Source: Kiritimatiellia bacterium (lineage in GTDB: Bacteria > Verrucomicrobiota > Kiritimatiellia > RFP12 > UBA1067). From it: a stretch of 64,000 nt of DNA. The DNA is not shown here. The text below is the continuation of a report on this DNA, generated by a model with database tools. The stretch is from NCBI GenBank assembly GCA_045537795.1, contig JAZSQE010000065.1:101418-165417 (forward strand), given 5' to 3'.

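Follow-up and report, generated by a model that had tools for sequence, protein, structure and literature searches.

The DeoR-linked nine-gene locus at 34061-44406 reported in the initial annotation was confirmed by ORF analysis and by Pfam and NCBIfam scans. The regulator gene is followed by eight genes that all run in the same direction with intergenic gaps of 1-125 bp. The reading frame of the PfkB kinase is listed from position 34671. Since its homology begins only at residue 80 and the ATG at 34872 is preceded by a TATAAT box, the shorter span given in the table is the most likely one. In the 100-bp divergent region the DeoR gene has a promoter-like site, and three putative GATTnTnTCAAAT-like boxes are present. 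The flanks are unrelated to the operon: V/A-ATPase A-like, pgi and SBF transporter genes precede it, a CT398-like gene and a Mur ligase gene come after it, and the remainder of the 64 kb consists of housekeeping genes. As anticipated from the sequence, the genes iolG, iolE, iolD and iolA are absent from the approximately 40 window ORFs scanned with Pfam, and no transketolase was found among the ORFs scanned in the window. No operon component reaches the equivalog cutoff for a known pathway except for the marginal IolB and the broad XylB model.

Table. Genes of the DeoR-linked locus and their Pfam/NCBIfam domain assignments
Gene	Coordinates	Strand	Domains
DeoR regulator	34061-34771	-	HTH_DeoR, DeoRC
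PfkB kinase	34872-35786 (most likely span)	+	PfkB
FucI-like isomerase		+	Fucose_iso_C (weak)
IolB/KduI cupin		+	KduI/IolB
FGGY kinase		+	FGGY_N, FGGY_C
Flavoprotein (FAD)		+	FAD_binding_4, FAD-oxidase_C
Partner (345 aa)	41171-42208	+	none
Class II aldolase		+	F_bP_aldolase
MFS transporter		+	MFS_1

Homologues of the FucI-like isomerase were found in MAGs labelled as Kiritimatiellae, Verrucomicrobia, Lentisphaerae or Victivallales, the sources of which include rumen, goat, sheep, yak and human gut. We fetched 83 loci and compared them by tblastn and ORF clustering. The series PfkB-FucI-IolB-FGGY-FAD-partner-aldolase turned out to be intact in at least 13 of the 83, with several orders spanned (loci L001, L003, L054, L056, L062, L063, L071, L072, L075, L078, L081, L082 and others). 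Identities to the window proteins in these loci are 46-58% for PfkB, 55-73% for the FucI-like isomerase, 61-78% for IolB, 61-65% for FGGY, 75-83% for the flavoprotein, 43-55% for the partner, and 61-73% for the aldolase. Two Victivallis MAGs, L072 and L073, have the operon with 64-65% identity. The regulator is replaceable, being a LacI protein in locus L003. No paper found in the literature searched describes this gene combination or such a flavoprotein in apiose or uronate catabolism, and none ties IolB, FucI-like, FGGY or AGPS-like genes to Victivallis or Kiritimatiellae. We put at about 85% the probability that the locus is a single conserved operon for a catabolic route not described before, as opposed to a standard inositol pathway. 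All its parts belong to known enzyme superfamilies, and one enzyme pair may have new chemistry.

The genomic surroundings vary among the gut PVC bacteria, the group that includes Kiritimatiellae, Lentisphaerae and Victivallales. In Kiritimatiellae, glycosidase genes are often inserted in the operon (three kinds of GH2, GH31, GH30 and GH28), as is an IU-nucleosidase-like gene, and the MFS gene is sometimes inside it. In three Victivallales loci (L050, L054 and L056) a GH78 alpha-L-rhamnosidase gene lies directly upstream, while the downstream side has genes for an SDR, a Zn-ADH and an SGNH/GxDLY esterase. In other loci the operon is followed by a true nagA and a nagB-like gene, or by GFO and AP_endonuc_2 genes. 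Paralogues of the FucI-like gene are numerous elsewhere, often adjoining AP_endonuc_2 and GFO_IDH_MocA_C2 genes (the latter BT_2158-like glycoside 3-dehydrogenase), and FucI-IolB pairs also occur on their own. The embedded GH2 was considered as a uronidase. Its best solved relative is a beta-galacturonidase, but the N-x-K motif of beta-glucuronidase (GUS) is replaced by S-I-A, and this evidence was downgraded. An 819-aa protein of the relative locus L008 and an 815-aa 'FAD-dependent oxidoreductase' of Mesorhizobium (DAO/BFD/Pyr_redox_2) were rejected as a shared neighbour, being 22% identical over one domain only.

Three of the enzymes resemble an Embden-Meyerhof-Parnas (EMP)-like set. The sole NCBIfam match of the isomerase is the sulfoquinovose (SQ) isomerase SftI (NF048012), with 257.9 bits over the full length vs. 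a cutoff of 700, and by this score it is a homologue of SftI/SqvD, not an equivalog. No PDB match was obtained for it by sequence; its AlphaFold model (pLDDT 84, pTM 0.87) matches L-arabinose isomerases with TM 0.83-0.85 and L-fucose isomerase with 0.73. Among solved structures the PfkB kinase is closest to the sulfofructose kinase YihV, with which it shares 32% identity; ribokinase and ketohexokinase come next. YihV recognizes the sulfonate by the triad K27-R138-N109 (PMC8006165). In a pairwise alignment the window kinase has K, H and A at these positions, so that K alone is retained. It scores 97.9 bits against the IolC model TIGR04382, vs. a cutoff of 300, with ribokinase-type models higher, and this removes it from the lower-inositol enzyme set to which it had been assigned. 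The aldolase (PF01116, 270.9 bits) is under every NCBIfam equivalog cutoff. It is about equally near to KbaY-type ketose-bisphosphate aldolases, to 7nc7/7ncc (two PDB structures with the deposited name of class II fructose-bisphosphate aldolase) and, at 38% identity, to YdjI. Its metal and catalytic columns (H84, H87, E136, E138, E147, H176, H205, N227) are invariant relative to GatY, KbaY and YdjI, and its mobile loop is 9 residues shorter than in these three.

Known systems offer partial parallels to this set. Sulfo-EMP2 follows the same logic with members of the same families: an aldose-ketose isomerase of the FucI superfamily (SqvD/SftI) comes first, a PfkB ketose 1-kinase (SqiK) second, and a metal-dependent class II aldolase (SqiA), which yields DHAP and a C3 aldehyde with a non-phosphate tail, third. 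The window operon, however, does not retain the sulfonate triad, has no sulfoquinovosidase, mutarotase, SLA reductase/dehydrogenase or exporter, and contains in addition the invariant genes for the cupin, FGGY, flavoprotein and partner, four in all. The E. coli cluster ydjF-ydjL shares a DeoR regulator, MFS transporters, a PfkB kinase (the keto-uronate kinase YdjH) and a PF01116 aldolase (YdjI), and keto-uronate 1-phosphates are the best in vitro substrates in that cluster. It differs in containing Zn dehydrogenases and an aldo-keto reductase and in having no isomerases, FGGY kinase or flavoprotein; the window kinase is only 27% identical to YdjH.

The cupin had been called a clear IolB homologue. 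It does pass the IolB (5-deoxy-glucuronate isomerase) model TIGR04378, but by a marginal 2.9 bits only (207.9 vs. 205); PF04962 gives 242 bits. The FGGY kinase passes the XylB model TIGR01312 (393.6 vs. 380.25 bits), with the gluconokinase model at 242 bits. By score it is xylulokinase-like, and the XylB name is not trusted as a function because xylose isomerase is absent. Its identity to AplK of E. coli SE15, a validated apulose kinase, is only 25%. The best solved relatives of the MFS protein are Spinster-type proteins; weak NCBIfam hints of an anion or hexuronate (ACS) transporter were not upheld.

The flavoprotein had been described as a GlcD-like oxidase. GlcD (TIGR00387) is indeed its top NCBIfam match, but with 200.9 bits vs. 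a cutoff of 567.9, and in the alignment the metal site of D-2-hydroxyacid dehydrogenases, GHxGDGNxH...GEHGIG, is replaced by GHFSHWYEWGC and NEHHGVG. The best PDB match is alkyl-DHAP synthase (AGPS), with 185 bits vs. 144 bits for D-lactate dehydrogenase. The motifs MRLYD, SHxYxxGxxxY and HHGVG align with AGPS such that R271, Y402 and H444/H445 correspond to R419, Y578 and H616/H617, H615 being changed to Glu. E. coli YgcU, 32% identical, has the same motifs. We aligned 12 homologues from PVC bacteria, Mesorhizobium, Chloroflexota, Acidobacteriota, Roseibium, Novosphingobium, Enterococcus and E. coli, and found R271, Y273, D274, H390, S392, H393, Y402, H444 and H445 to be invariant. Close homologues carry the JGI label 'alkyldihydroxyacetonephosphate synthase'; at E<=1e-60 the homologues number 2,352. 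Judged by its catalytic residues and by the FAD_binding_4 plus FAD-oxidase_C fold that it shares with AGPS and YgcU, the flavoprotein is of the AGPS/YgcU type. It differs from AGPS in having no eukaryotic N-terminal extension, besides the Glu in place of H615. It differs from both in lying in a sugar operon by a kinase and an aldolase, always with a dedicated partner. A whole-word search of the literature found no functional study of E. coli YgcU or the ygc cluster.

The partner has no match in Pfam (including PF02754), NCBIfam or the PDB by sequence. In PVC orthologues C13xxC16xxC19, C71 and C75 are invariant and C281 nearly so, and the N-terminal cysteines would be enough for one [4Fe-4S]-type site. 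The model was built from a shallow alignment, with the N-terminal 94 residues (the Fe-S domain) poorly modelled and the C-terminal domain confident. With the latter, Foldseek retrieved EtfD 9ojn (E 1.2e-6, TMq 0.54), then LutA 9a6l and HdrB 5odc, 7bkb and 8rvy (TMq 0.44-0.47), so the predicted structure has the CCG-domain-pair fold of GlcF/HdrB/HdrD/LutA. Thus, the idea of a GlcF-like Cys-rich Fe-S partner holds at the fold level and fails at the level of motifs: the CxnCCGxmCxxC cysteines are mostly gone, with C281 the only nearly invariant one in the C-terminal domain. GlcDEF, Dld-II/LutABC and GlpABC likewise combine a flavoprotein with an HdrB/LutA/GlcF-fold protein bearing an N-terminal ferredoxin-like Cys motif, but here the H/H/E triad of the flavoprotein is missing and few of the CCG cysteines are left. 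With 324 representatives at E<=1e-3 among 1.84 billion, the partner belongs to a small family. Because homologues outside PVC, in Mesorhizobium and Chloroflexota, are without the N-terminal cysteines, a general electron-transfer role of the partner seems doubtful.

The cupin-FGGY-flavoprotein-partner module recurs in other phyla. A Mesorhizobium plasmid has xylB-FAD-hypothetical genes whose products are 43%, 47% and 24% identical to the window FGGY, flavoprotein and partner, respectively. Chloroflexota and Acidobacteriota have Cupin_2-FGGY-FAD-partner, in the same order as IolB-FGGY-FAD-partner of the window; across the non-PVC modules FGGY and flavoprotein are 37-47% identical to those of the window. 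The Chloroflexota FGGY scores 356.7 bits with TIGR01312, under the cutoff. Neighbours in these two phyla include a split transketolase, a Zn-ADH with the idonate-5-dehydrogenase model among its matches, a GFO dehydrogenase, an ApnL-like or Amidohydro_2 lactonase, IclR/GntR regulators and ABC transporters. More remote flavoprotein homologues (29-32% identity) are paired with FGGY kinases in E. coli, Roseibium, Shinella, Novosphingobium and Enterococcus gilvus. ETF genes and a GlpP-like antiterminator are near ygcU/ygcE in E. coli, a GlpD-like gene is near the Novosphingobium pair, and GlpP-like and GldA genes accompany the E. gilvus pair. Since the module recurs elsewhere with other C-C cleavage enzymes, the window cluster is a composite: a portable (cupin)-FGGY-flavoprotein-partner module is joined to different enzymes, which in PVC bacteria are the FucI-like isomerase, PfkB and the class II aldolase, and outside PVC a Zn-ADH and a transketolase. 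The need of the aldolase for a C1 phosphate would explain the extra PfkB kinase.

As the leading explanation we tentatively propose an EMP-like split of a hexuronate with salvage of the C3 fragment by the cupin/FGGY/flavoprotein module; it is a minority bet even so. Cleavage of this kind is suggested because sulfo-EMP2 and, loosely, IolB/IolC/IolJ and YdjH/YdjI share these families, and all of them split hexose-like molecules with an anionic or non-phosphorylatable end. The isomerase, PfkB kinase and aldolase would convert a hexose-like sugar with such a far end to DHAP and a short aldehyde. The cupin would turn the C3 2-hydroxy-aldehyde into a hydroxy-ketone, and FGGY would phosphorylate it to a DHAP analogue, the type of molecule that AGPS binds, which the flavoprotein would convert to a central metabolite. 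The best single guess for the substrate is D-GalA or D-GlcA, in which case the C3 product would be tartronate semialdehyde. This guess is favoured because the IolB/KduI family works on uronates, because the 3S requirement of PF01116 aldolases suits D-gluco/D-galacto sugars, because the isomerase is AraA-like, because the neighbours are pectin-flavoured (the GalAse-like GH2, GH28, GH78, esterases), and because the related transketolase clusters have a sugar-acid flavour. The uronate route has weaknesses: the embedded GH2 is without the GUS motif, the transporter lends no support, and the redox bookkeeping of tartronate semialdehyde is awkward for an AGPS-type enzyme.

A bolder version, which we regard as rather unlikely, is that the AGPS/YgcU-type flavoprotein and its HdrB/LutA-like partner are a new kind of sugar-catabolic enzyme with covalent N5-flavin chemistry. 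The window would then encode an uncharted 'urono-EMP' or rare-pectin-sugar route of gut PVC bacteria, and the module would also explain ygcU/ygcE and hundreds of unassigned clusters. The enzyme would act at the carbon beside the carbonyl of a 1-phospho-2-keto (DHAP-like) intermediate, where a substituent would be swapped, removed or inverted (e.g., de-etherification, desulfonation, C3 epimerisation or hydroxylation) to give a cleavable molecule or DHAP.

A pathway with two converging entries, in line with the logic put forward in the initial annotation, is also rather improbable. Here FGGY would phosphorylate the terminal CH2OH of a polyol or aldonate and the flavoprotein, following GlpK/GlpD logic, would oxidise the adjacent CHOH to a 1-phospho-2-ketose, while the isomerases and PfkB would make the same ketose-1-phosphate from an aldose or uronate, the branches joining at the aldolase. 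The order FGGY-FAD-partner-aldolase does equal the reaction order of kinase, dehydrogenase and aldolase, AGPS-type enzymes bind the R-CO-CH2-OP head group, and FGGY also matches the gluconokinase model. FAD/FGGY pairs in Enterococcus, E. coli, Roseibium, Shinella and Novosphingobium lie near GlpP-like antiterminators, glycerol dehydrogenase, GlpD-like genes and polyol-type ABC transporters. However, the partners of Mesorhizobium and Chloroflexota, which are without Fe-S cysteines, make general electron transfer doubtful, and some relatives have a separate GlpD-like dehydrogenase beside the AGPS-like gene. Moreover, the constant adjacency of two isomerases is left unexplained, and strictly fermentative hosts would require an electron acceptor.

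It is unlikely that the substrate is a branched or unusual pectin sugar of rhamnogalacturonan-II (RG-II) or apiogalacturonan, such as D-apiose or a relative, with PfkB and the aldolase replacing the apulose-4-phosphate transketolase. The closest non-PVC relatives of FGGY-FAD-partner do lie beside enzyme types of the apiose transketolase route: a GH140 apiosidase domain in locus L098, a D-apionate-lactonase homologue in L096, and a split transketolase with a Zn-ADH. Such Cupin_2-FGGY-FAD-partner-transketolase clusters share the cupin-first order with the window. The GH78 gene of the Victivallales operons, the GH28, GH2 and acetyl-esterase neighbours and the herbivore-gut origin of the hosts fit as well; in B. 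thetaiotaomicron a GH78 enzyme reportedly cleaves the Rha-Api linkage of RG-II. Against this reading, the apiose routes attributed to Carter (2018) are said to involve no flavoprotein, the lactonase homologue is far under its cutoff (NF049900, 285 vs. 750 bits), none of the examined PVC loci had an apiosidase, and on chemical reasoning a DHAP-type aldolase would be unable to cleave apulose phosphates productively. Compared with the D-apiose transketolase pathway (apsI, aplK, aptAB; MetaCyc PWY-8089), the window has PfkB, the class II aldolase and the FucI-like isomerase for transketolase and ADH; neither an aplK orthologue (FGGY being 25% identical to AplK) nor an aptA/aptB transketolase is in the window. 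The summary of this route in PMC13001218 has no flavoprotein.

Still less likely is a 6-deoxyhexose of the quinovose, fucose or rhamnose type, cleaved by isomerase, kinase and aldolase to DHAP and lactaldehyde. The cupin, second kinase and flavoprotein would process lactaldehyde/acetol, or the flavoprotein and partner would oxidise lactate. In favour, the isomerase is a member of the FucI/AraA superfamily, the FGGY enzymes include rhamnulo- and fuculokinases, and the flavoprotein and partner have their ancestry in the GlcD/LutA-HdrB lineage, which serves lactate oxidation. Growth on rhamnose is reportedly part of the species description of Victivallis vadensis. A true Ni-dependent lactate racemase LarA (627 bits vs. 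a cutoff of 460) follows FucI-IolB in the relative locus L037, and GH78 is directly upstream in L050, L054 and L056. Yet LarA is limited to this one locus and the GH78 neighbour to one clade, and the flavoprotein is without the 2-hydroxyacid metal site. In addition, PF01116 aldolases take 3S ketose phosphates, whereas L-rhamnulose-1-P and L-fuculose-1-P are 3R.

Sulfoquinovose is a very unlikely substrate. In this variant of sulfo-EMP2, sulfolactaldehyde would be isomerised to sulfoacetol. After phosphorylation of the latter, the AGPS-like flavoprotein would remove the sulfonate, so that a second DHAP and sulfite would result. SQDG is abundant in forage, and AGPS exchanges the leaving group on C1 of a DHAP derivative, which would suit sulfite release. 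SftI is the only NCBIfam match of the isomerase, sulfofructose kinase is the best solved relative of PfkB, and the class II aldolase is as in SqiA. The gene for a 30% identical isomerase on a Ca. Chlorohelix plasmid is accompanied by siroheme genes and by genes for sulfite reductase and an SSADH-like dehydrogenase. On the other hand, the SftI score is far short of its cutoff (258 vs. 700) and just the K of the YihV triad is retained. The GH31 embedded in locus L004 is 21% identical to YihQ and without the sulfoquinovosidase R301/W304 motif. No SLA reductase/dehydrogenase, YihU/SlaB-type gene, sulfonate exporter, sulfite exporter or sulfite reductase was found in any PVC locus examined, and a 2026 SQ review names neither such a pathway nor such a taxon. 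With score, triad, motif and cluster content all against it, a sulfoquinovose operon was rejected as a candidate and kept only as a low-probability rival.

Hardly any credence is left for a split myo-inositol pathway, in which IolB, an IolC-like kinase and an IolJ-like aldolase would act here and iolG/E/D/A would be elsewhere in the genome. V. vadensis reportedly grows on myo-inositol, the cupin passes TIGR04378, and the kinase and aldolase families are those of IolC and IolJ. The IolB-IolC-IolJ sequence likewise combines a uronate isomerase of the cupin type with a PfkB kinase and a class II aldolase, which together would cleave a keto-acid 6-phosphate to DHAP and an acid semialdehyde. In the relative locus L001 the operon is followed by an AP_endonuc_2 gene and by a GFO gene that is IolG-like (165 bits). 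But both are far under the IolG and IolE cutoffs, the window kinase is not IolC, iolG/E/D/A are missing from the 64-kb window, the FucI-like, FGGY, flavoprotein and partner genes (four invariant members) would be left without a role, and the module is found in non-inositol contexts. The least probable explanation, a chance mosaic of separate known pathways that are merely adjacent, would be compatible with the occurrence of the module and of the isomerase/PfkB/aldolase trio without each other in some genomes, with the interrupting glycosidase genes and with the lone FucI-IolB pairs, but it is rejected because seven genes keep a fixed order across bacterial orders in at least 13 genomes, with short gaps and a shared divergent regulator, and almost no component reaches a known-pathway equivalog cutoff.

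Kiritimatiellae and Lentisphaerae are common, poorly understood glycan degraders of the rumen and gut. The conservation of the operon and the interleaved glycosidases suggest that it probably serves a quantitatively relevant plant-wall sugar, candidates being uronates or rare RG-II sugars, the catabolism of which is, to our knowledge, largely unexplored. Time and again bacterial AGPS homologues are found in company with an FGGY kinase (E. coli YgcU/YgcE, rhizobia, Chloroflexota, Acidobacteriota), we know of no reaction assigned to them, and the operon offers a testable context for this orphan family. If the substrate turns out to be ordinary, the operon would still represent a non-orthologous replacement of the Ashwell (UxaC/UxaB/UxaA) route. 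Solving the reaction of the flavoprotein would improve the annotation of many genomes, and new flavin chemistry could come to light.

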